Shown here piece after piece: positions 1 through 45,560 of a DNA stretch of 64,000 nucleotides; the stretch's first letter is position 1; every line of letters begins with the position of its first letter. The notes under the pieces were generated by a model that was given only the letters and a program-made list of their open reading frames with translations, was not told where the DNA came from and did not search any database. Source of the stretch: Dysosmobacter segnis. GTDB taxonomy: Bacteria > Actinomycetota > Actinomycetes > Actinomycetales > Bifidobacteriaceae. The DNA lies in assembly GCA_963590945.1 (NCBI GenBank), contig CAVAQZ010000001.1, positions 23,220 through 87,219 on the forward strand, in the 5' to 3' direction. Position numbers and translations under genes: made by a program.

Positions 1-294
1 CAGTCGAAGCATATGACGTTTCACCGTCAGCAAGCATGGACGCACCGACGATGCGCAACCCGCCTCGCCCAACCGCGCCTAACCGAACCAACCGCAACCA
101 TGCATGCGGCGAAGTCGGCATGCGGGAGCACGTCAGACCAGCATGCGGATAGCGGGAACGGCTTGACGCCATGGTTTCGTAGTATTGAACAACGCATGTG
201 GCCGCCCACGAAGTCGTTTGGGGCCGGCTGGTCGACCTCAGGCGTGCATCAATCGAAATTGCAGAACCGTTCCATCATTGAGCGAGAGGTTGTT

Positions 295-1389
295 ATGTCC
301 GAAAAAATCAAGGTCGGCATTCTCGGAGCTACGGGCATGGTCGGACAGCGCTTCGTCACGCTGCTCGAAAACCATCCGTGGTTCGAAGTGGTCACTCTTG
401 CCGCGTCCGCACACAGCGCCGGCAAGACCTACGAAGAGGCCATCGGCGGTCGCTGGAAGATGGAAACCCCGATGCCGGAATTCGTCAAGACCATGGTGGT
501 CAAGAACGTGGCCGACGTGGAGGACGTGGTCAAGGACGTCGACTTCGTGTTCTCCGCGGTGAACATGCCGAAGGCCGAGATTCGCGCCATCGAGGAGGAA
601 TACGCGAAGACCGAGACCCCGGTCGTGTCCAACAACAGCGCGCATCGCTGGACCCCGGACGTGCCGATGGTGGTGCCGGAGATCAACCCGGAACATTACG
701 ACGTGATCGAGCACCAGCGCAAGCGTCTCGGCACCAAGCACGGCTTCATCGCGGTCAAGCCGAACTGCTCCATCCAGGCGTACACCCCGGCTCTGGCCGC
801 GTGGAAGGAATTCGAACCCCGTGAGGTGGTGGTGAGCACCTACCAGGCCATCTCCGGCGCCGGCAAGACGTTCGAGGACTGGCCCGAGATGCTGGGCAAC
901 ATCATTCCGTTCATCTCCGGCGAGGAAGAGAAGTCCGAGAAGGAGCCGCTCAAGGTCTTCGGCCATGTGGACGCCGAAAAGGGCGAGATCGTGCCGTTCG
1001 ACGGCCAGCTGCGCATCACCTCGCAGTGCATCCGCGTGCCCGTGCTCAACGGCCACACCGCCACGGTGTTCGTGAACTTCGCCAAGAACCCGACCAAGGA
1101 AGAGCTGATCGAACGCTTGGAGAGCTACACCAGCAAGGCAGCCGAACTTGGCCTGCCGCACGCTCCGAAGCAGTTCATCCAGTACTTGACCGACGACGAT
1201 CGTCCGCAGGTGAAGAAGGACGTGGACTACGAGGGCGGCATGGGCGTTTCCATCGGACGCCTTCGTGAGGATTCCATCTTCGATTGGAAGTTCGTCGGAC
1301 TTGCGCACAACACTCTGCGCGGCGCCGCAGGCGGAGCGCTGGAAAGCGCCGAAATGCTCAAGGCTCTCGGATACATCACCAGGAAGTGA
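295..1389 (+). CDS. asd: Aspartate-semialdehyde dehydrogenase
   Basis: GILGATGMVGQ NAD-binding motif, KPNCS catalytic Cys, HNTLRGAAG C-terminal motif; ATG at 295 after GAGAGG. Confidence 0.95.
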   Translation: MSEKIKVGILGATGMVGQRFVTLLENHPWFEVVTLAASAHSAGKTYEEAIGGRWKMETPMPEFVKTMVVKNVADVEDVVKDVDFVFSAVNMPKAEIRAIEEEYAKTETPVVSNNSAHRWTPDVPMVVPEINPEHYDVIEHQRKRLGTKHGFIAVKPNCSIQAYTPALAAWKEFEPREVVVSTYQAISGAGKTFEDWPEMLGNIIPFISGEEEKSEKEPLKVFGHVDAEKGEIVPFDGQLRITSQCIRVPVLNGHTATVFVNFAKNPTKEELIERLESYTSKAAELGLPHAPKQFIQYLTDDDRPQVKKDVDYEGGMGVSIGRLREDSIFDWKFVGLAHNTLRGAAGGALESAEMLKALGYITRK

Positions 1390-1410
1390 CGGAATAACGA
1401 ACGAGCCATA

Positions 1411-1460
1411 ACGGAAACCCCGTGGAGGAACTTCAGATCGGTTCCTTCACGGGGTTTCGT
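1411..1460. terminator. Hairpin between convergent asd and askB, probable bidirectional terminator
   Basis: GAAACCCCGTGGAGGAAC...GTTCCTTCACGGGGTTTC inverted repeat. Confidence 0.8.
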
Positions 1461-1511
1461 ATTCAGCCATGCGCGGCCGCATTCGGCCGTATGCAGCTAC
1501 GTCGCGGCGGG

Positions 1512-2078
1512 TCAGCGACCGGTGCCGCCGTACACCACGGCCTCAACCTGGTCGGCGTCGAGACCGTACGCCGTGTGCAGGGCCTTGACCGCGTCCTGCA
1601 GCTGCTCGAGCGGAACGAGGGCCGCGATGCGGATCTCGGATGTGGAGATCATCAGCACGTTCACGCCCTTGTCGCTCAACGCGTTGAAGAACTTGGCGGC
1701 CAGGCCGGAGTGGGTCTTCATGCCCACGCCCACCACAGCCACCTTGCCAACGTTGGCGTCGATGTCGAAGGACTGGTATCCCAGCTCATCCTGCTTGTCC
1801 TGCAGCACTTCCTGCACCTTGGCCGCGGCGGTGCCCGGCACGGTGAAGGAGATGTCGGCGGTGCCGGTGGAGGCGGACGCCTGCACGATCATGTCGACGT
1901 TCACGCCGGCTTCGGCCAGCATGGTGAACACCTTGGCGGCCATGCCCGGTTCGTTCGGCACGCGGCGAACGGTGGCCAGCGATTCGGTGTTGTCATGCGC
2001 GACGCCGGAGATGATCGGGACTTCCGGGCCGAGATCGGGGAACAGGTCTCCCAGGGACTGGTTGTTGTTTTCGCTCAT
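1512..2078 (-). CDS. askB: Aspartokinase regulatory (beta, ACT-domain) subunit
   Basis: ISGVAHD, PGMAAKVF...NVDMIVQ, VGVGMKTHSG, ISTSEIRI, VYGGTGR match the C-terminal ACT half of actinobacterial LysC. Confidence 0.9.
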   Translation of the reverse strand: MSENNNQSLGDLFPDLGPEVPIISGVAHDNTESLATVRRVPNEPGMAAKVFTMLAEAGVNVDMIVQASASTGTADISFTVPGTAAAKVQEVLQDKQDELGYQSFDIDANVGKVAVVGVGMKTHSGLAAKFFNALSDKGVNVLMISTSEIRIAALVPLEQLQDAVKALHTAYGLDADQVEAVVYGGTGR

Positions 2079-2150
2079 GTTCTTACCTTTGCTTGTAAAG
2101 TCTTGAGGTTTCGTGGTTTCGGCGAACGTTCGATGTTCGCCGAAGGTCGG

Positions 2151-2912
2151 TCAGATGTTCGGCAGGGTGCGCGGGTCGACGCCTTCCGGCACGATCAGAG
2201 TGCCGCGACGGTGGGAGAAGGAGCTGCGCACGTGCAGCGGCATGTTGAATCGCTGCGCGTATTCCACGCAGCGCAGGGCGAGCACCTTGGAACCGCAGGA
2301 CGACATTTCCAGCATCGACTCGTAATCGATCACCGGAATGCGGCGGGCGGCCGGAACGATTCGTGGATCGGCGGTGAACACGCCGTCGACGTCCGTGTAG
2401 ATCTCGCACACGTCCGCGTTCAGAGCCACCGCGAGCGCCACTGCGGAAGTGTCGGAGCCGCCACGTCCGAGCGTGGTGGCGTCGCCGCCTTCGTTCACGC
2501 CTTGGAATCCGGCCACGATGGCCACGGAGCCCTTATCGAGGGCGCGGCGCACACGATCCGGTTTCACGGCCTTGATGTGTGCGGTGCCGAACTGGGCGTC
2601 GGTCATGAAACCGGCCTGGGAACCGGTGAAGGAGTATGCATGGGAACCGGCCGCATGAATCGCCATGGCGAGCAAACTCATCGAAATACGCTCGCCTGCG
2701 GTCATCAGCATGTCCATTTCGCGCGCGGGCGGGTTGGAATCGATGCTGAGCGCCTGATCAATCAGGTCGTCGGTGGTGTCTCCCATTGCGGAGACCACGA
2801 CGGCCACGTCGTTGCCGGCGTTCTTCGTTTCGATGATGCGTCGGGCCACGCGCTTGATGGATTCTGGGTCGGCTACGGAAGAGCCGCCAAATTTCTGCAC
2901 GATGAGAGCCAC
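2151..2912 (-). CDS. askA: Aspartokinase catalytic domain (no ACT domains)
   Basis: [46 protein letters not shown] start. Confidence 0.95.
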
Positions 2913-3020
2913 AACTTATCCAATCTTCTCAGTGTGTCGTTCGCCTGCGATATGGGCAGGCTGAACGATTATAGGAATATTCCGTTTTGCCGGGTCGCGC
3001 GGCGCCCAGCATACGGAATT

Positions 3021-3623
<603 letters not shown>

Positions 3624-3653
3624 GTGTCGTTCCCTTTCGTGGATGTGCGCCCG

Positions 3654-6260
3654 TCAGGAGTCGAGGCTCTTCTTGTGTTGCGTGTTGAGCGGGTTCTTCG
3701 GATCGTCGGATTTGAATTCCTCGACTTTTTTCACTTCGAACAGTCGGGTGAGGTCACTCACGCTCAATGCGGTGGACTGCCCTAACGATTCGTCGCTCAT
3801 GGAGTATTCGTCGTCTTCCGCCGCGACCTGTGGTTTCACGGGTTCCGCCGGAGCGAATTGCTGGTTCCATGGATCGTTCGCCGTCGGTTTCGCCGCGGGA
3901 TTCGCGGCATCGCCGCGCATGTCATGACGTTGGCCGTGGTGCGGATATCCGTCTGGGTTCGCATGACGCGCGGATTCCGGTGCGGATTCCGGTGCGGATT
4001 CCGGTGCCGGCTGTCGTTCGGGCTCGGCCGGCCCCGACTGCACCGGCATGGGAGCGCCCCATGGATCGTCGTCCGCTCCAGTCTGGTTTTCCGACATCGC
4101 GGATGCCGTCGGTGCGGAGCCCGGCATGGAATCCGTGGGTTCGGCAGTCGGCGCCATGGGGGCGCCCCATGGATCGTCGTCCTCGGCGGGCGCGGGTTGC
4201 GAAGCCGGAGCGGAGGGCCGCTGCGCGATCGGCCGCGCGTCCGCTTGTGGCATCGGCTGCGGGACGGGTTTCGGCGCGGTCACACCCCATGGGTCCGTCT
4301 CGTCTTGGTCGGAGGCGTTCGAATGGCTTCGGTGGGCCTCCTCGTCGGTGGGTTCGCTTTCTTCCTGGGATTTCCGCCCGTCGGACTTCTCGCCGCTTTC
4401 GAAGGAAGAGGCATTGCCGAGATTCGCGGTCAGCAGGGTCGCGGTCTTGAGCTGTTCCTGCACGAGTTGCGCGTTGATTTTGCTCTGCTCTTCCGGGCTG
4501 AGTTTGCTCCACGGAATGGCCTGCGTGCCGTCGCCCAGTTTCTTCGCCGGCATGAGCGTGGTCTGCGGGCCGAACGTCTTGCGCACTTCGGCGCGCAGGA
4601 TCTTCACCACGTCATTCGTGCCGTCCACTTCCTCCTTGGCCACGGCTTTGGCGAACGCGTACTTGCTCAGGGCCTTGTCGAATTTGATCCACAGTCGGTT
4701 CGATTTTTCGTCGAACAGCACGCGCGGAACCTTGGTGCGGTCCACATAGCGGCGCACGTCGTCCGGCAGGCCCGACACGATCGCGTCCCACTTTTCGTCG
4801 GGAGTGCGATTGTCCTGCATGGCGGATGTGGAGTCCGCAACGTTCGCGGCGTCCATTCCGGATCGCGCATCGTCATCCGACGATCCCATCGCCTGTTCCA
4901 CGGCGGCGAGCACGGAGGCCGCGCCGGAGACGACCGCGTCGGCGACGTTCGTCGGGGCGGCGGACGGCTGTACGGAACGCACGGGTTGGGCCGCGACGGG
5001 TTCGGCGGAAGCGCCCTGGGCCGCTCTGCGTCGGGAGCCGGCCATGGACGGCCGCTGCGGGCCGGATTGCGGGGAAGCGGCGGAATCGCCCGAAACCGCC
5101 GGAACGGGCATGCCGGAGGTCGGCGCGTCTCCGGCGGAGGCGGAGCCGAGGTTCTGCTCGCGTCCGGCCAGCAGGCGGGCGGCGAGGAGCTCCAATCGCA
5201 TGCGGGGCGAGATGGCGCCGTTCATATTGGCGAGCGTGGCGTTGATCGTATCGGCCATCGATGCGAGCGCGGCCAGCCCCAGCGAGGAGGCTTGTCGGCG
5301 CAGATCGTCCATGTTTTCGGCCGCGGCGTCGTCGGAGAGCACGCTTTCGGCGCGCTCCCCGCCCAACGTGAGCACCAGCAGGTCTCGCACGCGGGACAGC
5401 AGGTCCTCCACGAATCGGCGGGGATCGAATCCTCCGACCACGACTTTCTGAATCACCCCGTACAGCGCTTCGCCGTTTTTGTCGACGACCGCGTCGACGG
5501 CCTCGCCGATGAGCGCGTCCGGGGTGAAGCCCAGCAGCGCGACCGCGGAATCGTAGGGGATCTCGCCGTCCACGGCGCCGACCATCAGCTGGTCGAGCAC
5601 GGAGAGCGTGTCTCGCACGGAGCCGCCGCCGGAACGCATGGCCAGACGCAGCACGCCCGGTTCCGCTTCGATGTTCTCGTTGCCGCAGACCTGTTCCAGA
5701 TACGGGCCCATGATCTCCTGCGGCACGAGGCGGAACGGATAGTGGTGGGTGCGCGAGCGGATGGTCCCGATCACCTTGTCCGGTTCGGTGGTGGCGAAGA
5801 TGAACATGACGTGTTCCGGCGGCTCCTCCACGATTTTCAGCAGCGCGTTGAAGCCTTGCGGCGTGACCATGTGGGCCTCGTCGAGGATGAAGATCTTGTA
5901 GCGGTCGCGCGCGGGGGCGAATCCGGCCCGTTCGCGCAGTTCGCGGGCGTCGTCGACGCCGTTGTGCGAGGCCGCGTCGATTTCCACGACGTCGATCGAT
6001 CCGGGGCCTCCGGTGGCCAGGTCGCGGCAGCTTTCGCATTCGCCGCACGGATGCGAGGTGGGCCCCTGCTCGCAGTTGACGCAGCGCGCGAGGATGCGTG
6101 CGGACGACGTCTTGCCGCAGCCTCGCGGTCCGGAGAACAGGTAGGCGTGCGTGAGCTTGTGCTCGTCGAGCGCGCGCATCAGCGGGACGGTGACCTGGTC
6201 TTGCCCGATCACGCCTTCGAAAGTGTCGGGACGATACCTTCTGTACAGTGCCAATGCCAT
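3654..6260 (-). CDS. dnaX: DNA polymerase III subunit gamma/tau with long low-complexity C-terminus
   Basis: ALYRRYRP, GPRGCGKT Walker A, PCGECESC, EIDAAS, LDEAHM; likely start ATG 6260 after GGAAGG. Confidence 0.95.
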   Translation of the reverse strand: MALALYRRYRPDTFEGVIGQDQVTVPLMRALDEHKLTHAYLFSGPRGCGKTSSARILARCVNCEQGPTSHPCGECESCRDLATGGPGSIDVVEIDAASHNGVDDARELRERAGFAPARDRYKIFILDEAHMVTPQGFNALLKIVEEPPEHVMFIFATTEPDKVIGTIRSRTHHYPFRLVPQEIMGPYLEQVCGNENIEAEPGVLRLAMRSGGGSVRDTLSVLDQLMVGAVDGEIPYDSAVALLGFTPDALIGEAVDAVVDKNGEALYGVIQKVVVGGFDPRRFVEDLLSRVRDLLVLTLGGERAESVLSDDAAAENMDDLRRQASSLGLAALASMADTINATLANMNGAISPRMRLELLAARLLAGREQNLGSASAGDAPTSGMPVPAVSGDSAASPQSGPQRPSMAGSRRRAAQGASAEPVAAQPVRSVQPSAAPTNVADAVVSGAASVLAAVEQAMGSSDDDARSGMDAANVADSTSAMQDNRTPDEKWDAIVSGLPDDVRRYVDRTKVPRVLFDEKSNRLWIKFDKALSKYAFAKAVAKEEVDGTNDVVKILRAEVRKTFGPQTTLMPAKKLGDGTQAIPWSKLSPEEQSKINAQLVQEQLKTATLLTANLGNASSFESGEKSDGRKSQEESEPTDEEAHRSHSNASDQDETDPWGVTAPKPVPQPMPQADARPIAQRPSAPASQPAPAEDDDPWGAPMAPTAEPTDSMPGSAPTASAMSENQTGADDDPWGAPMPVQSGPAEPERQPAPESAPESAPESARHANPDGYPHHGQRHDMRGDAANPAAKPTANDPWNQQFAPAEPVKPQVAAEDDEYSMSDESLGQSTALSVSDLTRLFEVKKVEEFKSDDPKNPLNTQHKKSLDS
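3970..4007. repeat. 12-bp tandem repeat x3 in dnaX (APES)
   Basis: (GCGGATTCCGGT)3. Confidence 0.9.
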
Positions 6261-6389
6261 CGTGTTTTCCTTCCGCAGTAACGTCACTAGGCTACCGATT
6301 AAATACGACACGGCACACCCCGCAAGCGATTGTTTTTCCAACGGTTCCGCTCGACTCGCGCGCGGAGCGAGGAACGGCCCGCGCGAAAT

Positions 6390-6451
6390 TTGACGCGGTG
6401 TCAATTTTGGGATTAGACTTGATTTCGTCAAGAGATTGACGGAGTGTCAAT
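6390..6451. promoter_or_regulatory. Two palindromic operators TTGAC-N5-GTCAA, probable TetR autoregulatory sites
   Basis: TTGACGCGGTGTCAA at 6390-6404 and ATTGACGGAGTGTCAAT at 6435-6451, upstream of the TetR gene. Confidence 0.65.
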
Positions 6452-6496
6452 ATGTCGCGGAAACGCGAAACGCCACTCGCATGAAGGAGAAGAACG

Positions 6497-7090
6497 ATGG
6501 GCGCAACCACGCAGCCAGCGATCACGGTCGGAGACGCGCGACGTCAGCAGATCGTGCACGCAGCCCGCCAGATCTGCCTCGAAAAGGGTTTCTCGAAGAT
6601 CACGGTCAGCGACATAGCCGGCCGCGTCGGCATGACCAGATCGCTCTTCTACCACTATTTCCAAGACAAAGACGAGGTTGCGGACGCCGTCCTGGACGAC
6701 GTCATCGGCGAAGTCATATCGCACCTGGAAGAGTGGAACGCCCAACGCGAGGTAGGCAACATCTCGAAAGCGCTCGACGACGTGGTGCGGCTCACCCGAT
6801 CGCTCATCAAAGAGGACGGACCGTTCAGCCAACGCATGATCGAGGACGGGAACGCGGGACTGTACATCAAGTTCATCGACCGCGCGGCCGACCGCATCGC
6901 CGAATACATCTGCGCATCCACCGTGCGCGATTTCGAGAAGATGCACGGACTGCCGATAACCAACGAGCATGAAACCTTCTACACGCTCATCGTCGGCCTG
7001 ATCTCGCTGATCAGACTGCATCCCGGCACCGAGGACTCCGTCGTCAGGCAGGTCGCGGCACAGACGCTGCACCTGAACGAATACATGTGA
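6497..7090 (+). CDS. TetR/AcrR family transcriptional regulator
   Basis: KGFSKITVSDIAGRVGMTRSLFYHYFQDK HTH; RBS AAGGAG. Confidence 0.92.
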   Translation: MGATTQPAITVGDARRQQIVHAARQICLEKGFSKITVSDIAGRVGMTRSLFYHYFQDKDEVADAVLDDVIGEVISHLEEWNAQREVGNISKALDDVVRLTRSLIKEDGPFSQRMIEDGNAGLYIKFIDRAADRIAEYICASTVRDFEKMHGLPITNEHETFYTLIVGLISLIRLHPGTEDSVVRQVAAQTLHLNEYM

Positions 7091-7134
7091 CGCGAACCGT
7101 TTCGCGAACCATGTGAGGAGAGAAAGGATTAGCG

Positions 7135-8121
7135 ATGCTGTTCCAAGTCTATGGAGACACCGCCGTATACCAGTGGATCGGCTGGTTCCTTGTTTTCGGC
7201 TGTCTGATCGGGGCCAACGAGCTGGCCCGACGGACCAAAACCGGCGGAATCGTGGCGTTCCTGATCGTTCCGGCGATCCTGACCGTCTACTTCATCACCA
7301 TCTACGTGGCCGCCGCGGCCGGAGCCGAATGGGCGCTGAGCAACCCGACCTACGTGCACATGACCAGCTGGTTCCACTACGCGAAGCTGTACGCCGCCAC
7401 CGCCGGCTGCATCGGCTTCATGGCGCTGAAGTACAAGTGGGGCAGCATCGGCAAGTCCGAATGGTTCAAGTGCTTCCCGTTCGTGATCGTGGCCATCAAC
7501 ATCCTCATCGCCGTGGTCTCCGACTTCGAGTCCGCCATCCGCGCATGGGGCACCACCTGGATCTCCACTGAGGGCGTGACCCTGTACGGCGGCTGGCACA
7601 ACGTGTTCAACGGCGTGGCAGGCCTCATCAACATCGCCTGCATGACCGGCTGGTTCGGCATCTACGTTTCCAAGAGGAAGCAGGACATGCTGTGGCCCGA
7701 CATGACGTGGGTGTTCATCGTGGCATACGATCTGTGGAACTTCTGCTACACCTACAACTGCCTGCCCACCCACTCCTGGTATTGCGGCCTGGCGCTGCTG
7801 CTGGCCCCGACCGTGGCCAACTTCTTCTGGAACAAGGGCGGCTGGATCCAGAACCGCGCCAACACGCTGGCCATCTGGTGCATGTTCGCGCAGGTGTTCC
7901 CGGCCTTCCAGGACGAATCCAAGTTCGCCGTGCAGTCGGTGAACAACCCGAACGTGAACCTGACGATATCCCTCATCGCGCTCGTGGCCAACATCCTCGC
8001 CTTCGGCTACATCATGTACCGCGCCAAGAAGCAGCACGTGAACCCGTGGCTGCAGGAGGTGTTCTCCGGCACCAAGGACTTCGAGCAGGCCATGGCCCGC
8101 CGCGAGGATCTGGCCGCCTGA
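7135..8121 (+). CDS. Polytopic membrane protein of unknown function (DUF5692-like)
   Basis: Multiple hydrophobic helices, Trp-rich motifs (WFHYAK, DMLWPDM, WIQNRA), strong GC3 bias, RBS GAAAGGA. Confidence 0.75.
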   Translation: MLFQVYGDTAVYQWIGWFLVFGCLIGANELARRTKTGGIVAFLIVPAILTVYFITIYVAAAAGAEWALSNPTYVHMTSWFHYAKLYAATAGCIGFMALKYKWGSIGKSEWFKCFPFVIVAINILIAVVSDFESAIRAWGTTWISTEGVTLYGGWHNVFNGVAGLINIACMTGWFGIYVSKRKQDMLWPDMTWVFIVAYDLWNFCYTYNCLPTHSWYCGLALLLAPTVANFFWNKGGWIQNRANTLAIWCMFAQVFPAFQDESKFAVQSVNNPNVNLTISLIALVANILAFGYIMYRAKKQHVNPWLQEVFSGTKDFEQAMARREDLAA

Positions 8122-8332
8122 ACGACGCCGGTCATGAACACCGGACGGTGACCACACAATCAGCAACCAGTCGGGGCCGGCGAAGGCCGGCCCCTCTCCC
8201 AATCGACGTGAATCACGTTGCCCTGGTATTCGACATGCGCGGTCAGTTGCGTATTGTCGGCTGCACTGACCAATTGGTTGCGGCCGATTTCGTGCCCGTC
8301 GACCAGTAACGCCACGGATGCGGTAATGGACG

Positions 8333-9553
8333 TCAGTCGAGGAACTCACCGGTCAGAGGATCGCGATGGTCTCGTTCGATGGCCGCCGCAACGGTTTCAT
8401 CACCGTTTTCGGACCGGCCTGCCGCGACCGCGGGCGGAACGAGCACCCGCAAGGCACGGTCCTGCACCGCGACTTTGACCGGCATACGGCCCACGTATTC
8501 GCCGTCGGCCATCATCACCGGCGGTTCCGCACCGTCCTGCGCTTTGGTGATTTCGATTTCACGCACGCGTTTCCAGCCGAACGCCTTGCTGCCGAGCAGC
8601 CTTCCGTGGTAGGCGCGCATGATCGCGTCGACGCATTCCATGAAGTTCGGTACATGATCGAGCCACACCAAATCCAGCATGCCGTCCGAGAACCGCGAGT
8701 ATGGAGAGACCTCGATCCCTCCGCCGATATGCCTGGAATTGGCCACCGTGAGCAGCGGTGAGATGACGTCTCGTTCCTCCACGGAACCGTCCGCCAGCGT
8801 GGCTTTGATGTGGTATCCGTACCGTCGCATATGCGTCAGTTCCACGATCACGGCGGCGAAGTAACGCAGAGAGCCATTGGGCAGATGGGAATGATTCGCA
8901 CGATCGTTGATGCTCGCATCCAAACCGCACGACAGCATGCCCGCGTAGAAACGGTTGATCGCCGTGCGTTTCACCGTGGCGGAGCCTTGCGGAGTGGCAG
9001 GACTGCATGACGTGACGGAACCGCACGAATCGCCATCGTTCTCACGTCCATTCCCGTTCTTGTGCCCGCACTCATCCCTACTCCCGTCTTCACCGAAGCT
9101 GGGATCGACGGCATATCCGCCCGGCAGCGATGTCGCCAAGCCCATATCAACGTCGATATACGTGCCGCGCACTATCGCGCCGACTATGCCTTCCACCGCC
9201 GTATTCACGCGATTGACAGGCAGATTCAACCCCCGCGCAAAATCGTTTCCAGACCCGGTGGCCACAATGCCCAGTGGTTTTCCGGAAAGCCCGACCGCAT
9301 TGGCTCCGAGAGCGATCATGCCATCTCCGCCGACCACCACAAGATAGTCGTATTCGTCTTTTCGGGTTCTGGCGTTCCGCAAGGAATCCTCGAAACTCAG
9401 TCCGGTTACGTCAATCACATCGAAACCGTGCTTCGCCCCCGCTTCCTGAAGCAGGCGTACCACCTGTTCGCCGACTTTGGCGCCCTTGCCCTTGTTCGAC
9501 GTCGGATTCCCGACCACGGCAACTGTCATGCTCGTACGTGACGTTTCACTCAT
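8333..9553 (-). CDS. Diacylglycerol/lipid kinase family protein
   Basis: NPTS, VVGGDG, GSGNDFAR, GLDA, ADGE motifs. Confidence 0.88.
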   Translation of the reverse strand: MSETSRTSMTVAVVGNPTSNKGKGAKVGEQVVRLLQEAGAKHGFDVIDVTGLSFEDSLRNARTRKDEYDYLVVVGGDGMIALGANAVGLSGKPLGIVATGSGNDFARGLNLPVNRVNTAVEGIVGAIVRGTYIDVDMGLATSLPGGYAVDPSFGEDGSRDECGHKNGNGRENDGDSCGSVTSCSPATPQGSATVKRTAINRFYAGMLSCGLDASINDRANHSHLPNGSLRYFAAVIVELTHMRRYGYHIKATLADGSVEERDVISPLLTVANSRHIGGGIEVSPYSRFSDGMLDLVWLDHVPNFMECVDAIMRAYHGRLLGSKAFGWKRVREIEITKAQDGAEPPVMMADGEYVGRMPVKVAVQDRALRVLVPPAVAAGRSENGDETVAAAIERDHRDPLTGEFLD

Positions 9554-9718
9554 ATCTCAGTACGATAACCGCGTTTCCCGCCACACGCCACATGCCGCCG
9601 TCCAATACAGACAGCCGTACGCAATCCGTTGGATTTGTTGGGTTGCATACAATCGGCCCATGATCATTGGGATTGGCCCGGCAGGCAATCCGTCGGATTC
9701 ACTCAGTTGCCCGCAATC

Positions 9719-10198
9719 TCAACCGCATTCGATTGGTCCCGCACGAGATCTTCGGCTCACTTCCGGCACGAGCGGCACACTCGTGCTTATCGTGGCCGCA
9801 ACGATCACATCCTCGTCTTCCAACGAACATGATTCGAGTGCCACATCATTGCCGGAAAGCGTACGTTCCGCGGCCGCACATGGATCGGCATCGCCATCAT
9901 AGAGGGCCCGAGCCGCAGCGACCGATGCCAGGTCGGCCATGTTCTGCACGCGATGCAGACACAGCAGCAGATTGCCGGCCGATGCCACTGTGGCAAGCAT
10001 GATGGCCGCCACCGCGATCAGAGCGACACCGGAGATGGTTCCGGCCCCCTCGTCATCGTGCCATGCCAGACACTTGACGAAACGTTTCACGCATCTTTCA
10101 TTCGACCGTTTTGCAGATTGTTCCGCAGAACGTTCCACATGACATTTCATAAAGCATTTCGAATCTTGTTTCACACAGTGTTTCACACGACCGTTCAT
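9719..10198 (-). CDS. Tad pseudopilin (TadF/TadG-like, Rv3654c family); start uncertain
   Basis: DEG|AGT prepilin-like site, hydrophobic helix, ADLASVAAA, C..C, SRAGP C-terminus. Confidence 0.8.
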   Translation of the reverse strand: MNGRVKHCVKQDSKCFMKCHVERSAEQSAKRSNERCVKRFVKCLAWHDDEGAGTISGVALIAVAAIMLATVASAGNLLLCLHRVQNMADLASVAAARALYDGDADPCAAAERTLSGNDVALESCSLEDEDVIVAATISTSVPLVPEVSRRSRAGPIECG

Positions 10199-10216
10199 TT
10201 CATTTGCATCTCCTTT

Positions 10217-10576
10217 CTAGAAATATCGAATCGCCTTGCCCACGACCCTTGCCGGCAGCACTCCTGCAGGATCGGGCGCAATCGGGCATTGCACCGTTAC
10301 GGCAACGCTGTCGGAACCAACCACGAACGACACCGAGGAACCTTCCACCGCGGCGGCCAACGCGGCGTTTCGGGCGCGGGCCTCGCCATCGGCCCCGATC
10401 ACCGTCATGGCACGGGCTCCGGCAGCGGCGGCGTCCTGGCAATTCATGGACACCACGGACGCACGCCCCAAGCACAGCACCAACATCGCCACCACCGCAA
10501 CGCAGGGAAGCACCACCGCGAATTCCGCGGTGGCGGATCCCTCGTCATAGCGTCGTTTCCACCATGACGTCAGCAT
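10217..10576 (-). CDS. tadE: TadE-like pseudopilin
   Basis: DEG|SATAEFAVVLP prepilin motif, CQDAAAAGAR. Confidence 0.85.
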   Translation of the reverse strand: MLTSWWKRRYDEGSATAEFAVVLPCVAVVAMLVLCLGRASVVSMNCQDAAAAGARAMTVIGADGEARARNAALAAAVEGSSVSFVVGSDSVAVTVQCPIAPDPAGVLPARVVGKAIRYF

Positions 10577-10579
10577 GTT

Positions 10580-10870
10580 CTACCCCACGCTGAGCGCTTT
10601 CTTGATGATGTTGGTCAGCAGCGTCTTGATGGCATCGGATTTCATGATGCCCACCAATACCGCAGCGAATCCGGTCGCGGCAACCAACACGACCGCGTAT
10701 TCGGCGGTAGCGGCGCCTTCCTCCGGTTCAGCGGTCAGCATGCGCATACGTGAATCCAGCAGGCATACCGTTTTGTAGGATTTTTCCTTGATATCGAGCA
10801 TTCGCCGTCCGACACGAACCATCATGCCCGATGAACCATCAACATTGATTGGCGTTATATCGCTCATCAT
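10580..10870 (-). CDS. flp: Flp pilin precursor (DUF4244-type)
   Basis: EEG|AATAEYAVV Flp motif followed by a hydrophobic helix; RBS GAAAGGAG. Confidence 0.88.
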   Translation of the reverse strand: MMSDITPINVDGSSGMMVRVGRRMLDIKEKSYKTVCLLDSRMRMLTAEPEEGAATAEYAVVLVAATGFAAVLVGIMKSDAIKTLLTNIIKKALSVG

Positions 10871-10959
10871 GCTCCTTTCGTATGAATGATCCCGATCGAA
10901 TGACCAGGTGAGTTCAGTCTTGCGTACCGGAGCCGCAGGATGCGCGGTTTCCCGGGGTT

Positions 10960-11015
10960 GTGGTCGGAGAAGGCGAGTTATCCACAGGTTTGGCGTGTCG
11001 CCGAAGTTATCCACA
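10960..11015 (-). promoter_or_regulatory. Tandem DnaA-box element upstream of flp (copy 1)
   Basis: TTATCCACA at 10978-10986 and 11007-11015, preceded by TGTGGTCGGAGAA. Confidence 0.7.
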
Positions 11016-11081
11016 TTCCAAAGGCACGTCCACTTAAGTTCGAAGACGCCGCCGGTCGGCACGCGTCGATGCCAACGGAAA

Positions 11082-11609
11082 TCACCCGAAGAACGACGCC
11101 ATCGACGGAATGATTCCCAACGCCATGAACGCCGGGAGGAAGCACAAACCGGTCGGCAGCAGCAGTTTGATCGACAATTTGGCGGCTGATTGTTCTATGC
11201 GGGAGCGCTCATTCCAATCGATCTGTTCCACCGCCGCGTCCAACCGGTTCACCGGAGACGAACCGTTTCGCCATGACGAGGCGAACGCGTCCCGGACCAA
11301 CGCAAGATCCCCCTCATCCGGCCATGCATCATCCCAATCGACACCTTGATTAAGGTTCCTGCCGACCGACTGGAGTCCATCACCGAACCTGCCGGAGACG
11401 ATTTCCCCGACCGCGATCAGCGCACGCGGAATGGACGAACCCTGCCGTATGGCCACGGACAGCATCTCCAGAACCAACGGCAACGGCACTTCCTGCAATC
11501 GTTCACCCACTCCAGGCATCTCACGAATCGGAGTCCACCGCCATAGCCAGACGGCCTGCGCGGCAAAAACCGAAGCAATCAGCACCCAAATCCACGCCGT
11601 TTCAATCAT
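11082..11609 (-). CDS. tadC: TadC-like type II secretion system F family protein
   Basis: AAKLSIKLLLPTGLCFLPAF motif; ATGA overlap with tadB stop; RBS GAAAGGA. Confidence 0.85.
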   Translation of the reverse strand: MIETAWIWVLIASVFAAQAVWLWRWTPIREMPGVGERLQEVPLPLVLEMLSVAIRQGSSIPRALIAVGEIVSGRFGDGLQSVGRNLNQGVDWDDAWPDEGDLALVRDAFASSWRNGSSPVNRLDAAVEQIDWNERSRIEQSAAKLSIKLLLPTGLCFLPAFMALGIIPSMASFFG

Positions 11610-12448
11610 GTTGTTCCTTTCATCAACGCCCTCACCCACAGCAGTCCCAGCGCATAGCAACATGCCGCGAACCCCAGGCACAGCAATCCTTTGGCATTCC
11701 CAAACAAAAAAGCGAACGGCCTTGCACCAATCCCCTCCCCCAACAGCAGCGTCACCAACGGCAATGCAAGCAGCAGTTTCACCGTGGCCTGCGGCATGGC
11801 GAACACGTTGGCGCGCAGGTCATCCATCAAACGCCGCCGTTTCAGCGACGAGGCAACCACATCCAGACAATGGCCCGTCTCACAGCCCAAATCGGCGCTC
11901 AGCCGGCATGCCGCGTACAACTCCTCGCTGAGCAGGTCGGCCTGGTCACGTCGTTCTTGGGGCAGACTGCGAGCGCGCACAACCAGGCGGATGCGAAAGG
12001 GCGTCAATTCGGCTGTGGCAAAAGGCTCTCCACCGAGCTCTTCGAAAGCGCCCACCAACGTGGCCCCGCTTTTCACGGAAGCCTGCAGCGCGGACACACA
12101 TGCCACCCCACCTATCGGTGGCAGGTATGGCACGACCGTTCCCGCCGGTTCATCCGGTTCAGCCGGTCCATCCGGTTCAGCCGGTCCAGCCAATTCAGTC
12201 GGTTCAGCCAATTCAGCCATCTTGGCTATATTGGCGGCCCCAACCGTTCCGGCCATCCCGACCACCCCGGCCTTTCCAGCCGTCACAGACGGATCATGCA
12301 TACCGTGTTCAGACGGAATCTCCGCACCAATCATGGCTCCCATGCGCGGTATACGGCCATTCGCTCCGCATCTTGGCCAAAGCCATACCGCCATGCCGAT
12401 CAACACGGATGCCGTCAACGACCACACAAACCACACAGCGAAAGTCAC
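11606..12448 (-). CDS. tadB: TadB-like pilus assembly membrane protein
   Basis: PQATVKLLLALP...G..P motif, C-terminal TM helices, position between tadA and tadC. Confidence 0.8.
   Translation of the reverse strand: MTFAVWFVWSLTASVLIGMAVWLWPRCGANGRIPRMGAMIGAEIPSEHGMHDPSVTAGKAGVVGMAGTVGAANIAKMAELAEPTELAGPAEPDGPAEPDEPAGTVVPYLPPIGGVACVSALQASVKSGATLVGAFEELGGEPFATAELTPFRIRLVVRARSLPQERRDQADLLSEELYAACRLSADLGCETGHCLDVVASSLKRRRLMDDLRANVFAMPQATVKLLLALPLVTLLLGEGIGARPFAFLFGNAKGLLCLGFAACCYALGLLWVRALMKGTT
12144..12215. repeat. Degenerate 9-bp tandem repeat x8 in tadB
   Basis: GCCGGTTCA/TCCGGTTCA/GCCGGTCCA/GCCAATTCA units. Confidence 0.8.
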
Positions 12449-17465: not shown

Positions 17466-17641
17466 CGCCATAAGACGTCGCAGAGACGCCATAGAAAAAG
17501 AAGGGGGTCGACCTCGCCGAATGAGCCGCGTGGTCGTTGAAATCCGATGATGAGGATTATTCGGATTTCAATGGTCGCGCAACGATTCAGGAAGGCGGGT
17601 CGGCCCTTCTTCGTACGTCCGCGAATCCTACAATGAAAGGC

Positions 17642-18730
17642 ATGAGCGAAGAGATGAGACGCATCGTGGAAGCCGCCGGCGGCATCGTATGGCGCTGGAA
17701 ATCCGGCAGCGAAATCGCCAAGAATCCGGCAATCGCAGCCGAAAAATCCACCAAGGAACAGCTCAACAGCATCGAAGTGTGCATCGTGCACCGTCCCAAA
17801 TACGACGACTGGAGCTGGCCGAAAGGCAAGCTTGAACAGGGCGAATCGCACAGGCATGCGGCCGTACGCGAGATCGGCGAGGAAACGGGCGTGCCGATCG
17901 CCCTTGGACCATATCTGGGCGAGGTGGAGTACCCGCTGGCCGACGAAGGCAAGAAAACCCGCCATTCGCATGATCGCACCGTAGACACCAAGCATTCGAT
18001 GTATTGGATGGCCAAGCCGATTTCCGACGCCGACGCGGAACGGCTGGCCGACGCGTTCGGGCCGGTGCAACGCGCGGACGTCGGCGAAATCAACGATGTG
18101 GTGTGGGTGTCCCCTCGCGAAGCCAGAAAGAAACTGACCCATTCAACCGACAAAGACATCCTCGCCACGTTCGTCGACCGCATCGAGGAAGGCGCCGCGA
18201 CCGCGCAGAATCTGCTGCTCGTGCGCCACGCGAAAGCCGAGTCGCGCAAATCGTGGAAGGGAACCGACGCCAATCGGCCGATCACACCGAAGGGCGCGGC
18301 GGCTGCGTTCGCGCTCAATCGCGAACTGGCCTGCTACAGCCCTGACCGGCTGGCCACATCACCGTGGCTGCGCTGCCAGGAAACGTTGCAGGTGCTGAGC
18401 TGGCAGACCGGACTTCCGCTGGAATACGTGGACGAACTCACGGAAGACGCCTTCGCCGATCATCCAAGCAAATCCTGGATCGCGTTCCGAAACCAAATCG
18501 AACAGACTCTGGAATCCCGCCAGACCACGGCGATCTGCATGCATCGCCCGGTGATCGGCGGCATGTTCGACCATCTGCGTGGCCTGTGCTCACGCAAGCA
18601 ACTCGCCAAGCAACTCATCGCGAAATCGCCGTACATGCCCACCGGAACGGCCATCGCGATGTTTATAATCAACACGCCGCAAGGTTTCAGCATCATCGAT
18701 ATTCAAAAGGTCACGCCACTTGTCTACTAA
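17642..18730 (+). CDS. NUDIX hydrolase fused to histidine-phosphatase domain (MutT1-like); start may lie further upstream
   Basis: [14 protein letters not shown]...[11 protein letters not shown]udix box; LVRHAKA phosphatase motif. Confidence 0.88.
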
Positions 18731-18731
18731 C

Positions 18732-19511
18732 ATGCACTACGGCTCCGGGTCCGTCATTCCAAGCCGTTCCGCTGGATTCACGAACACCGGCTCGCCGCGA
18801 CCGGCACGCCCCGGACAGCTCGACCAAATGATGGCCGACAGCATCGCGGGAGGCGCGGATCCCGCGCAGATCAGCGAAATGAGCCACGCCTCCGCGGCCG
18901 CCTTGCTGGACAAGGTGCATCATACGCAGGATACACAACTGGTGGAGCGCGTGCTCACGCTGGTGGACCGCGAGGGAGTGGATGTGATCGCGGAATTGTG
19001 GAGCCATGCGGAACCGGATTCGCTTCCGGGAATCATGTGGCGGCTGTACGTGATGCGCACCTGGATGCGCAAGAACCGCGATTCCATAGCCCGTCTGTGG
19101 CGCGTCGGAGAGCCCGTGGCCACTTCCGCTTCCGCGATTGCCGGCGTCGATCAGGCACCGACCGAAGACGACATCGCCGCCATCGCCGATTCGATTCTCG
19201 CCGGTGCGTTCACCGGAGATTTCGCCGTCGCGTTGGAACGTGCGGCGGCGTTCACCGACGTGGTTGCGTTGGGATTGCGCATTGAGGCACGCAGGATGAT
19301 CAAGCGGTTGGAATCCGGTGCGATCGAATCCGGATCGGATTCCCAGATCGCGCCGGTCTCCGCAACCGCTTCCGCCCCGGCGGCCGGCGCTATGGAAAAG
19401 CGGATTCGCATGAAGGCCTCACGTCTTATGCATACGGCCGGGAACCTGTTCGCCACGGCCAAGGATTTCCGTCATGGCGCCAATCTGTGGCGGCGGGGGC
19501 GTTTGGAGTAG
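18732..19511 (+). CDS. Conserved-looking hypothetical protein
   Basis: Clean codon bias, follows the NUDIX gene by 1 nt, motifs LPGIMWRLY and GAFTGDFAVALERAAAF. Confidence 0.7.
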   Translation: MHYGSGSVIPSRSAGFTNTGSPRPARPGQLDQMMADSIAGGADPAQISEMSHASAAALLDKVHHTQDTQLVERVLTLVDREGVDVIAELWSHAEPDSLPGIMWRLYVMRTWMRKNRDSIARLWRVGEPVATSASAIAGVDQAPTEDDIAAIADSILAGAFTGDFAVALERAAAFTDVVALGLRIEARRMIKRLESGAIESGSDSQIAPVSATASAPAAGAMEKRIRMKASRLMHTAGNLFATAKDFRHGANLWRRGRLE

Positions 19512-19652
19512 GATCGGCCCGCATCGCACCGGTCAAAACGATCAAAACGATCAAAGATACTAAAGAGTCCCGCGCCTCGCCGCCATGGTCCGTGCGACAC
19601 GTTTCTCATGAGGGGATACCGGTAAGTCCTACGCGACTGTACAATAAGTATC

Positions 19653-19739
19653 TGCGCCGGGCCATGCATAGCCCCGGGCTCCATTTTTTGCCGCTGCGAG
19701 CGGCCTTTGCGCCGACAGGCGCTTTCGTGGTTCGGCGCA
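19653..19739 (+). ncRNA. Candidate structured small RNA (four-way junction)
   Basis: 14-bp closing stem with three internal hairpins, -10-like TACAAT at 19640-19645, pyrimidine-rich tail. Confidence 0.6.
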
Positions 19740-19926
19740 CTTCCTTTCTCCATCCACTTCCCATCCACCGGTTCCATTATTTTTCTTTTTCCGATTTCCC
19801 CTCACAATCCGTTTCCCGCTGCGCGTGAGCACATCCGAACCCGCCAGAAAGAGGGTACTTTCGGGGGTATTCTGGGCATTCATTGGCTTTACGAACCCAA
19901 GATTTTCGGACTATGCTCGATAAACC

Positions 19927-20568
19927 ATGGATATTCATATTTTGAACCACCCGCTGGTGGAACATAAACTCACGATCCTCCGAGACAGGAACACTCCTTC
20001 CCCCGTGTTCCGCGAACTCGTCACCGAGCTTGTCACCCTGGAGGCGTATGAGGCGACCCGCAACATCGAAGTTGTGGACAAGCCGGTCGAAACCCCTGTT
20101 TCGCCTACCGTAGGCAAGACCATCGCCTCTCCGTCACCGCTCATCGTGCCGGTATTGCGCGCGGGACTGGGCATGCTAGACGGCATGATGAAGATGATTC
20201 CGACCGCCGAAGTCGGTTTCCTCGGCATGAAACGCGACGAAGACAACCCCACACGGCAGACCACGTACGCGAAGCGCCTGCCGGAGGATTTGACCGGACG
20301 CCACTGCTTCCTCATCGACCCGATGCTGGCCACTGGCGGCACGCTGGTCGCGGCCGCCCACTACCTGGCTGAGATCGGAGCCAAAGAGATTACCGCCATA
20401 TGCATTCTGGGCACTCCGGAAGGACTGAAATTCGTCGAGGACAACCTTGACCCGTCAATCAATTTCAATCTGGTGCTGTGCACGGTCGACGAAGGGCTCA
20501 ACGATCAGAGCTATATCGTTCCCGGCCTTGGAGATGCCGGCGACCGCCTGTACGGCGTCATCGACTAA
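19927..20568 (+). CDS. upp: Uracil phosphoribosyltransferase
   Basis: HPLVEHKLT, PVLRAGLGM, IDPMLATGG PRPP motif, YIVPGLGDAGDRLYG. Confidence 0.97.
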   Translation: MDIHILNHPLVEHKLTILRDRNTPSPVFRELVTELVTLEAYEATRNIEVVDKPVETPVSPTVGKTIASPSPLIVPVLRAGLGMLDGMMKMIPTAEVGFLGMKRDEDNPTRQTTYAKRLPEDLTGRHCFLIDPMLATGGTLVAAAHYLAEIGAKEITAICILGTPEGLKFVEDNLDPSINFNLVLCTVDEGLNDQSYIVPGLGDAGDRLYGVID

Positions 20569-45487: not shown

Positions 45488-45560
45488 TACCCCCCGTGGG
45501 ATTCGAACCCACAACCCACGACTTAAAAGGACGCTGCTCTAACCGTTGAGCTAGAGGGGC
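45488..45560 (-). tRNA. tRNA-Lys(TTT)
   Basis: GCCCCTCTAGCTCAACGGTTAGAGC...CTTTTAA anticodon loop...GGTTCGAATCC; 73 nt; CCA not fully encoded (CCG). Confidence 0.95.

Follow-up and report, generated by a model that had tools for sequence, protein, structure and literature searches.

We examined a window of 64,000 nucleotides (nt) from Dysosmobacter segnis (GTDB family Bifidobacteriaceae; assembly GCA_963590945.1, contig CAVAQZ010000001.1, positions 23,220 to 87,219 of the forward strand) and conclude with high confidence that positions 19653-19739 of its + strand are a real, conserved non-coding RNA gene. The RNA forms a junction of four helices, P1 to P4 (Table 1), and has homologues across the class to which the organism belongs. 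Our preferred reading, to which we give a probability of roughly 0.55, is that it is an independently transcribed, structured small RNA (sRNA) that acts in trans, is regulated by stress in most lineages, and joins a recognition module to a possible pairing tail. It belongs to an RNA family absent from Rfam 15, whose Streptomyces member has probably been seen before and is uncharacterised. Within the window, an independent RNA gene takes the place of what might have been suspected to be a leader of the downstream gene upp.

A first-pass annotation of the region, made from the sequence alone, had described a P1 helix of 14 bp with three G-U pairs and three hairpins, P2, P3 and P4, the last capped by a GNRA tetraloop. 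All of these are present in the sequence, and RNAfold returned exactly this P1-P4 four-way junction for the + strand, at -48.1 kcal/mol. The fold was much more stable than those of shuffled sequences (z = -3.85; shuffle mean -36.3, standard deviation 3.06), with none of 200 shuffles as stable. On the - strand the corresponding score was z = -0.45, and 62 of 200 shuffles folded equally well. The annotation had also taken the three G-U pairs of P1 as a sign that the + strand is transcribed, a view borne out by this difference between the strands and by the G.U-rich covariation of P1 described below.

With positions 19600-19930 as the BLAST query, we found matches in 55 of 61 relatives, including all 36 genomes of the genus; these matches always spanned the junction and never the flanks. 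The 48 distinct copies in alignment A1 folded into the same four helices in RNAalifold, and A1 was the source of a covariance model, R1, which scores the window element at 107.2 bits. The element is single copy in its own genome. Of 151 genomes sampled from the class, 85 gave an R1 match (72 of 120 when only genomes of good quality were counted; six of the 85 are unpublished genomes), always at full length and mostly once per genome, and R1 matched 0 of 140 genomes from other classes of the phylum. Within one large family, 62 of 151 genomes had a match, and presence was nearly all-or-none by genus. A pattern scan of named genomes gave at least 120 loci, and those listed include Bifidobacterium, Cellulomonas, Brevibacterium, Microbacterium, Rothia and Nocardioides, as well as Propionibacterium, Rhodococcus, Williamsia, Modestobacter and Nakamurella.

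Copy number and length showed some variation among these homologues. Two or three copies of the RNA gene were observed in some genomes, mainly of one family (G382, G470, G445, G365, G387, G424, G440 and others in the large-family set; G077, G093, G101, G130, G145 and G167 in the class set), and whole genera of this multi-copy family have no detectable copy. At one locus (L096:5001-5108), a 15-base insertion repeats the 5' half of P3 together with its loop, and the match there is 108 nt long.

Covariation was assessed on alignment A4, which comprises 100 model hits, 97 of them distinct. Standard pairs made up 97.6% of its cells across the 97 distinct sequences and 16 of 24 model pairs changed on both sides, values that none of 500 shuffles reached; slid controls had only 33-41.5% of cells paired. 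A4 was fitted to the model and so leans towards the structure, making these paired and covariation figures generous. The support is concentrated in P1, where all 11 model pairs change on both sides in the 97 distinct sequences, and where many pairs are G.U or U.G, which correspond to A-C mismatches on the opposite strand. Because of these many G.U and U.G pairs, we fix the transcribed strand as +. P2, P3 and P4 have 2, 2 and 1 pairs that change on both sides and are otherwise invariant. Single-base insertions and deletions occur within the genus, and the element therefore contains no coding frame.

The hairpins are conserved in their loops as well as their stems. In P2, only the outer two pairs covary or open, and the two inside them never change; its loop is CCG in 87/97 distinct sequences, and CCA follows directly after the helix in 83/97. 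P3 changes from C-G to U-A at one pair in 20/97 sequences and from C-G to G-C at another in 1/97, and its loop is TGCGA, TACGA or TTCGA in 74/95 and begins with C in 20/95. The P4 loop is of the GNRA type (GAGA, GACA, GTGA or GCGA) in 90/97. The alignments show the opposite behaviour in the single-stranded junctions J2/3, J3/4 and J4/1, which are variable, the hairpin stems being invariant. A GNRA loop, a T-loop-like YNCGA loop and tandem C-G pairs together suggest a compact tertiary fold.

These observations bear on the idea that the element is not an RNA at all, but a DNA element (three inverted repeats serving as protein sites, a repeat or a mobile element) or a decayed tRNA gene. The three hairpins are indeed inverted repeats of invariant sequence, and their outline is cloverleaf-like. 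However, P1 pairing is kept through G.U and U.G pairs and compensatory changes that are meaningful on one strand only, the element is present once in the genome, a coding frame is excluded by the insertions and deletions just described, and neither ARAGORN nor the Rfam tRNA model found anything at the locus. Exact words of 12-14 bases from the element were found at 36, 9 and 4 other places in the genome, by a rough estimate about as often as expected by chance. The strand-specific covariation refutes a DNA element or tRNA remnant, and we regard that explanation as scarcely credible. Mimicry of rRNA or other genomic sequence was likewise rejected, since word recurrence is about what chance would give.

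The annotation had been unable to assign the RNA to a known family and had proposed an Rfam comparison together with homology and covariation checks. The latter yielded the class-wide homologues and the 11/11 covarying P1 pairs reported above. In Rfam 15, no family matched the locus at gathering scores, and relaxing the threshold to E ≤ 10 added only a 10-bit chance match at 19480-19513. Six homologous loci from other lineages had no match at E ≤ 0.1, and the surroundings of a Streptomyces-like copy gave only weak, terminator-driven rows. The sole gathering-score match in the whole window is a tRNA gene some distance away (Table 1). In openly searchable text, the scope of our literature search, we found no description of a class-wide four-way-junction RNA and no paper matching short sequence words of the element.

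The RNA carries signs of a promoter of its own. A TACAAT hexamer 7 nt upstream of P1 and a pyrimidine tail had both been noted in the first-pass annotation, and both are present; the predicted transcription start is at about 19652-19653. In the genus, a TANNNT box (TACAAT or TATACT) ends 4-12 nt before P1 in all 30 distinct copies, compared with 0/30 when the interval is shifted 60 nt upstream. A simple sigma-70 scan at the window locus found no two-hexamer promoter, hence no good -35. In many genus copies (L016-L020, L025, L027, L028, L050 and L186), the word CGGCGYG stands about 18-19 nt upstream of the -10, at the -35 position, perhaps as an unusual -35 element or as the site of a regulator; the window copy lacks it.

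Outside the genus, a different promoter signature was found. The pattern GGAAY-N15-19-GTT occurs upstream in 36/67 distinct model-derived copies (controls 2/67 and 0/67), with the GTT mostly ending 6-12 nt upstream of P1. Among the named-genome matches listed, 35 of 118 distinct loci carry the strict motif, compared with 0/118 downstream of the same loci, 1/118 on the reverse strand, and a mean of 0.55 in shuffles (maximum 4). Near-matches such as GGAAG or GGAAA are found in several further copies. According to PMC3489674, the GGAAY...GTT shape is that of SigH promoters in M. tuberculosis and C. glutamicum and of SigR promoters in S. coelicolor. Control of the RNA by a stress sigma factor outside the genus is therefore likely. 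In some lineages an extra short GC-rich 5' hairpin, often GGCC-TTCG-GGCC, lies between the promoter and P1 (loci L105, L113, L117, L136, L141, L175 and L218, also L066, L069, L074 and L078), and transcripts in these lineages seem to start about 25-30 nt farther upstream.

At the 3' side, the first 20 nt past P1 are 66.5% pyrimidine in the 97 distinct copies, as against 48% far upstream, and are enriched in CU-rich words. At least five T within the 10 nt after P1 were found in 24/30 genus copies and in 6/67 elsewhere, a contrast that the lower G+C of the genus may explain in part. Judging from this arrangement, P1 and the U tract probably end the transcript in the genus. Downstream of the window element, no hairpin stronger than -2.7 kcal/mol was found within 90 nt. 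Outside the genus, hairpins of -28 kcal/mol or lower lie within 90 nt downstream in 15/67 copies, compared with 3/66 in the upstream control.

The position of the RNA 188 nt upstream of upp, on the same strand and with no strong terminator hairpin between them, raises the alternative of a cis-acting upp leader or attenuator serving pyrimidine salvage, for example by read-through of the U/C-rich tract. At four genus loci (L004, L005, L013 and L014), no more than about 30-40 nt separate P1 from the upp ATG, which would suit a leader. We compared about 1.5 kb on each side of 29 genus loci from other genomes, and upp was present in only 15/29, versus a homologue of the 263-aa open reading frame (ORF) directly upstream in 26/29. 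Across the order and class, neighbouring genes are unrelated (pit/DUF47, ppk, a GlnR-type regulator, accD, PAC2, Lsr2, SecDF, malic enzyme, HelD and others), and the gene that follows the RNA frequently runs in the opposite direction. A conserved downstream gene with an expression platform, as expected of a riboswitch or cis leader, was found across neither the genus nor the class loci.

The upp gene, moreover, appears to be served by its own -10 box, TATGCT, which the first-pass annotation had recognised and whose distance from the ATG is typical of leaderless mRNA, suggesting that the upp mRNA is leaderless or nearly so. The relatives in which upp follows the RNA by 30-40 nt show the same arrangement, with TACTCT or CACTAATCT before the ATG. 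Because the neighbourhood varies and upp has its own -10 at a leaderless distance, we consider the RNA to be trans-encoded. Synteny largely refutes a upp leader as an explanation for the family, and we hold it to be highly improbable. The earlier proposal of an independent small RNA of about 90 nt is upheld by its own TANNNT box, by the presence of upp at only about half of the genus loci, by the variable neighbourhood across the class, and by the lack of any Rfam match.

We propose the following model for the function of this RNA. In most lineages, it would be transcribed from a SigH/SigR-type promoter of the extracytoplasmic function (ECF) class, a marker of the thiol-oxidative and heat stress regulon; in the genus, transcription would start from a housekeeping-like -10 box, and P1 with the U-rich tract would end the transcript. 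The RNA would then act in trans. A conserved partner in the cell, most probably a protein or a ribonucleoprotein (RNP), would recognise its invariant junction, and the pyrimidine-rich J2/3 and 3' tail may base-pair with mRNAs at purine-rich sites that resemble Shine-Dalgarno sequences. Pairing to ribosome-binding regions of mRNAs has been proposed for other sRNAs of Gram-positive bacteria. That P2-P4 are invariant while P1 is free to vary suggests that the conserved partner recognises the junction by its sequence. As stated, with a recognition module and a pairing tail, this two-part mechanism is tentative; the fold, its conservation, the strand, the promoter motifs and the changing gene neighbourhood are shown by the data, and expression in this organism, induction by stress, the partner and the targets are all matters that we infer.

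The main rival, a possible one, is a pure protein-binding or RNP RNA. A conserved protein or machine (RNA polymerase, the ribosome or an RNase, for instance) would recognise its invariant hairpins and be sequestered or scaffolded by it, in the manner of 6S or Ms1, and the RNA would pair with no mRNA. Near-invariant P2-P4 helices beside a freely covarying P1 fit sequence-specific recognition better than a mere scaffold, the GNRA (90/97) and YNCGA loops suggest a compact tertiary fold, the sequence of the tail is not conserved, and the Streptomyces RNA scr2952, discussed below, has a length of 84 nt, about that of the junction alone with no tail. Yet this explanation comes with no known partner and no conserved neighbouring protein gene across the class loci, the RNA resembles no Rfam family, 6S and Ms1 included, and the pyrimidine bias of the tail would be left unexplained.

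A trans-acting sensor would share the conserved junction but use it differently, as an aptamer for a redox- or thiol-linked small molecule whose binding alters how stable the RNA is or how accessible its tail. Aptamers commonly look like this RNA, with some 90 nt folded into a four-way junction, highly conserved nucleotides in the core and a P1 that varies, and the stress-type promoter in many lineages would suit such a role. Riboswitches, however, normally have covarying stems and conserved junctions, whereas here the stems are invariant and J2/3, J3/4 and J4/1 vary; there is also no conserved downstream gene or expression platform, and no match to an Rfam riboswitch. We judge a sensor to be improbable. 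A bolder reading makes the RNA a subunit or decoy of a class-wide thiol-oxidative and heat stress machine, and thus an ancient riboregulator like 6S or 6C. We think this rather unlikely; if it were true, a conserved protein or a redox-linked ligand would recognise the invariant hairpins, and bifidobacteria would have rewired the RNA to constitutive expression.

Several observations count against the stress-regulated, trans-acting sRNA that we favour. The ECF motif was found in 0/30 genus copies, and the link to stress may thus not hold for the window. Motifs like GGAAC...GTT are common to several ECF sigma factors, and the assignment to SigH or SigR is by likeness only. P2-P4 hardly vary, so that covariation supports them weakly and their pairing rests mainly on thermodynamics. 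The tail shows no conserved sequence, and its pyrimidine bias is modest (66.5% versus about 50%). At hairpin energies of -15 to -24 kcal/mol there is no clear downstream excess (43/67 versus 36/66 at -20). About 44% of sampled class genomes have no R1 match, and these include whole genera. The genomes are related and not independent, and all counts therefore overstate the support. Four RNA libraries of relatives hold the element only inside contigs of 228-12,046 letters, and such long contigs are uninformative on transcript ends, strand or level; the search of RNA-library runs returned 24 runs, each with about 4-6% of the sampled words. Finally, the Streptomyces member is very probably scr2952, an identification based on synteny and length and not on sequence comparison.

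To our knowledge, few actinomycete small RNAs have a known function. Actinomycetes are described as lacking both Hfq and ProQ (PMC6016810). Because of its class-wide conservation, its defined fold, its near-invariant helices and the SigH/SigR signature in most lineages, the RNA is a strong candidate for a core riboregulator of oxidative and heat stress in bacteria among which are producers of antibiotics, commensals of the gut and pathogens. Experimental follow-up is warranted by how widely it occurs, by how little its helices vary and by the stress-type promoter. With alignments A1 and A4 and model R1 in hand, the family is ready for family databases, and a large fraction of actinomycete genomes would gain one annotated gene from R1.

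The genes upstream of the RNA in the window are a fusion ORF and the 263-aa ORF (Table 1). The best NCBIfam match of the fusion ORF is the mycobacterial 8-oxo-(d)GTP phosphatase MutT1, at 150.6 bits versus a cut-off of 475, and a MutT1-like gene lies near the RNA in most of the 29 genus loci. The 263-aa ORF was compared with the GlnR-type regulator found upstream of the RNA in one other family, and equivalence of the two was rejected (BLASTP E 2.7). In several families of the order, phosphate genes stand beside the RNA, either DUF47/PhoU_div with a PHO4 transporter or polyphosphate kinase (loci L035, L038, L041, L032, L048 and L045). A phosphate neighbourhood (pit/DUF47, ppk, MutT1) was dropped as a clue to function, as the pattern fails across the class. 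At one further locus, the element (L100:5001-5091) is convergent to smpB (L100:5161-5637, - strand), 67 nt away, in the place where the gene for transfer-messenger RNA (tmRNA) would be expected, on the other strand.

Table 1. Features of the RNA locus and other annotated features of the window (window coordinates)
Feature	Position	Strand	Basis or remark
-10 hexamer TACAAT	19640..19645	+	Sequence; 7 nt upstream of P1
sRNA core, four-way junction P1-P4, 87 nt	19653..19739	+	RNAfold, covariance model R1
P1 5' strand	19653..19666	+	14 bp with 19726-19739, three of them G.U/U.G
P1 3' strand	19726..19739	+	Partner of 19653-19666
P2 hairpin AGCC-CCG-GGCT	19670..19680	+	Sequence, RNAfold
J2/3 single-stranded junction, CCATTTTTT	19681..19689	+	CCA conserved, remainder variable (alignments)
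P3 hairpin GCCGC-TGCGA-GCGGC, loop consensus YNCGA	19690..19704	+	RNAfold; inner T-A pair makes the loop GCG
P4 hairpin GCGCC-GACA-GGCGC, GNRA tetraloop	19709..19722	+	Sequence, RNAfold
Pyrimidine-rich, U-rich tail	19740..19820	+	Likely terminator with P1 in the genus, possible pairing region
-10 of upp, TATGCT	19912-19917	+	Ends 9 nt before the upp ATG
upp (uracil phosphoribosyltransferase, UPRTase; Pfam)	19927-20568	+	ATG at 19927, 188 nt after the RNA
263-aa ORF upstream of the RNA	18720-19511	+	No Pfam or NCBIfam match
NUDIX + histidine-phosphatase fusion ORF	17537-18730	+	Overlaps the 263-aa ORF by 11 bases
tRNA gene	45488-45560	-	Rfam, 64.3 bits; UUU anticodon read from the alignment

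Among known RNAs, tRNA is the first comparison that the cloverleaf-like outline invites. The T-loop is a five-base motif, and the P3 loop of most members (TTCGA, TACGA or TGCGA) resembles it. P1, however, has 11-14 bp across the family, compared with the 7 of a tRNA acceptor stem, and there is no D-loop, anticodon loop or CCA end. The 20/95 P3 loops that begin with C are incompatible with the U.A pair of a canonical T-loop. In the window, P1 has 14 bp and the hairpin loops have 3, 3 (or 5) and 4 nt; ARAGORN found no tRNA or tmRNA gene in 19400-20000, and the Rfam tRNA model had no match at the locus. We therefore rejected tRNA and tmRNA, as the first-pass annotation had done for tRNA. Its remark that the RNA has no TTCGA T-loop holds for the window, where the loop is TGCGA, but not for the many relatives that have TTCGA as their P3 loop. 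Signal recognition particle (SRP) RNA (RF00169) was rejected as well, since the genome has its SRP RNA at another place (G000:C1:1214-1304, 54 bits).

The 6C RNA (RF01066) resembles the present family in being a small, structured, trans-encoded RNA that is widespread in actinomycetes. Through its unpaired C-rich stretches, 6C is believed to bind mRNAs at G-rich sites. It is built of two hairpins whose C-rich loops carry at least six C, whereas the RNA described here has three, with CCG, YNCGA and GNRA loops, arranged around a four-way junction. No match to RF01066 was found in the window or in the whole genome (95% complete), and this identity was rejected. The promoters of 6C are reported to be of the SigA/SigB type (PMC5014011).

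Two stress-related sRNAs of actinomycetes offer further comparisons. ArnA of Corynebacterium glutamicum is described as a SigH-dependent, heat-induced sRNA (PMC3489674, PMC4046766) and, with its SigH-type promoter, resembles the lineages in which the RNA lies behind a promoter motif of that type. It differs, going by these descriptions, in being antisense to the 5' region of cg1935, and R1 matched 0/37 genomes of the presumed Corynebacterium genus at E ≤ 0.01, within the large R1-positive family. The mycobacterial MrsI (ncRv11846) is, according to PMC6016810, a structured sRNA of about 100 nt that is conserved past one genus, is induced by oxidative stress and is linked to IdeR. The same source gives it a 5' hairpin whose 7-nt apical loop contains a 6-nt seed, followed by a terminator; the architecture of hairpin plus terminator, as opposed to a junction, led us to reject identity with MrsI.

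The closest counterpart is scr2952 of Streptomyces coelicolor, an sRNA detected by RNA-seq. The supplement of PMC3765725 places this 84-nt RNA between sco2951 and sco2952 (3208719-3208802, + strand) and gives sar5126 and svr2719 as its orthologues. According to PMC8388888, its expression in S. coelicolor was confirmed by Vockenhuber et al. 2011, with conservation in over half of the Streptomyces tested. SCO2952 and SVEN_2719 are reported to be HelD (PMC8655204), and SCO2951 a malic enzyme (PMC7244524). In our two Streptomyces-like loci (L082 and L083), a HelD-like gene (UvrD-helicase/AAA_19), the RNA element and a malic enzyme gene follow one another in this order. The element of genome G148 stands at 3.474 Mb, flanked by the Rfam hits for Scr2736 (3.275 Mb) and Scr3202 (3.859 Mb), roughly where scr2952 would be expected. 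PMC8388888 states that scr2952 is in Rfam; in the release used here, RF02826-RF02833 are eight Scr families, none of which is Scr2952, RF02825 and RF02834 are unrelated, and no family matched the Streptomyces-like loci.

The likeness thus lies in the shared HelD and malic enzyme setting and in the length, 84 nt versus a junction of about 90 nt. The difference lies in scope: the accessible text of PMC8388888 describes scr2952 within Streptomyces only and mentions neither conservation across the class nor a junction of four helices nor a promoter of the SigR type. Because of the HelD-RNA-malic enzyme synteny and the length, we take the Streptomyces member of the family to be scr2952, which is thereby linked to homologues in model organisms with easy genetics.

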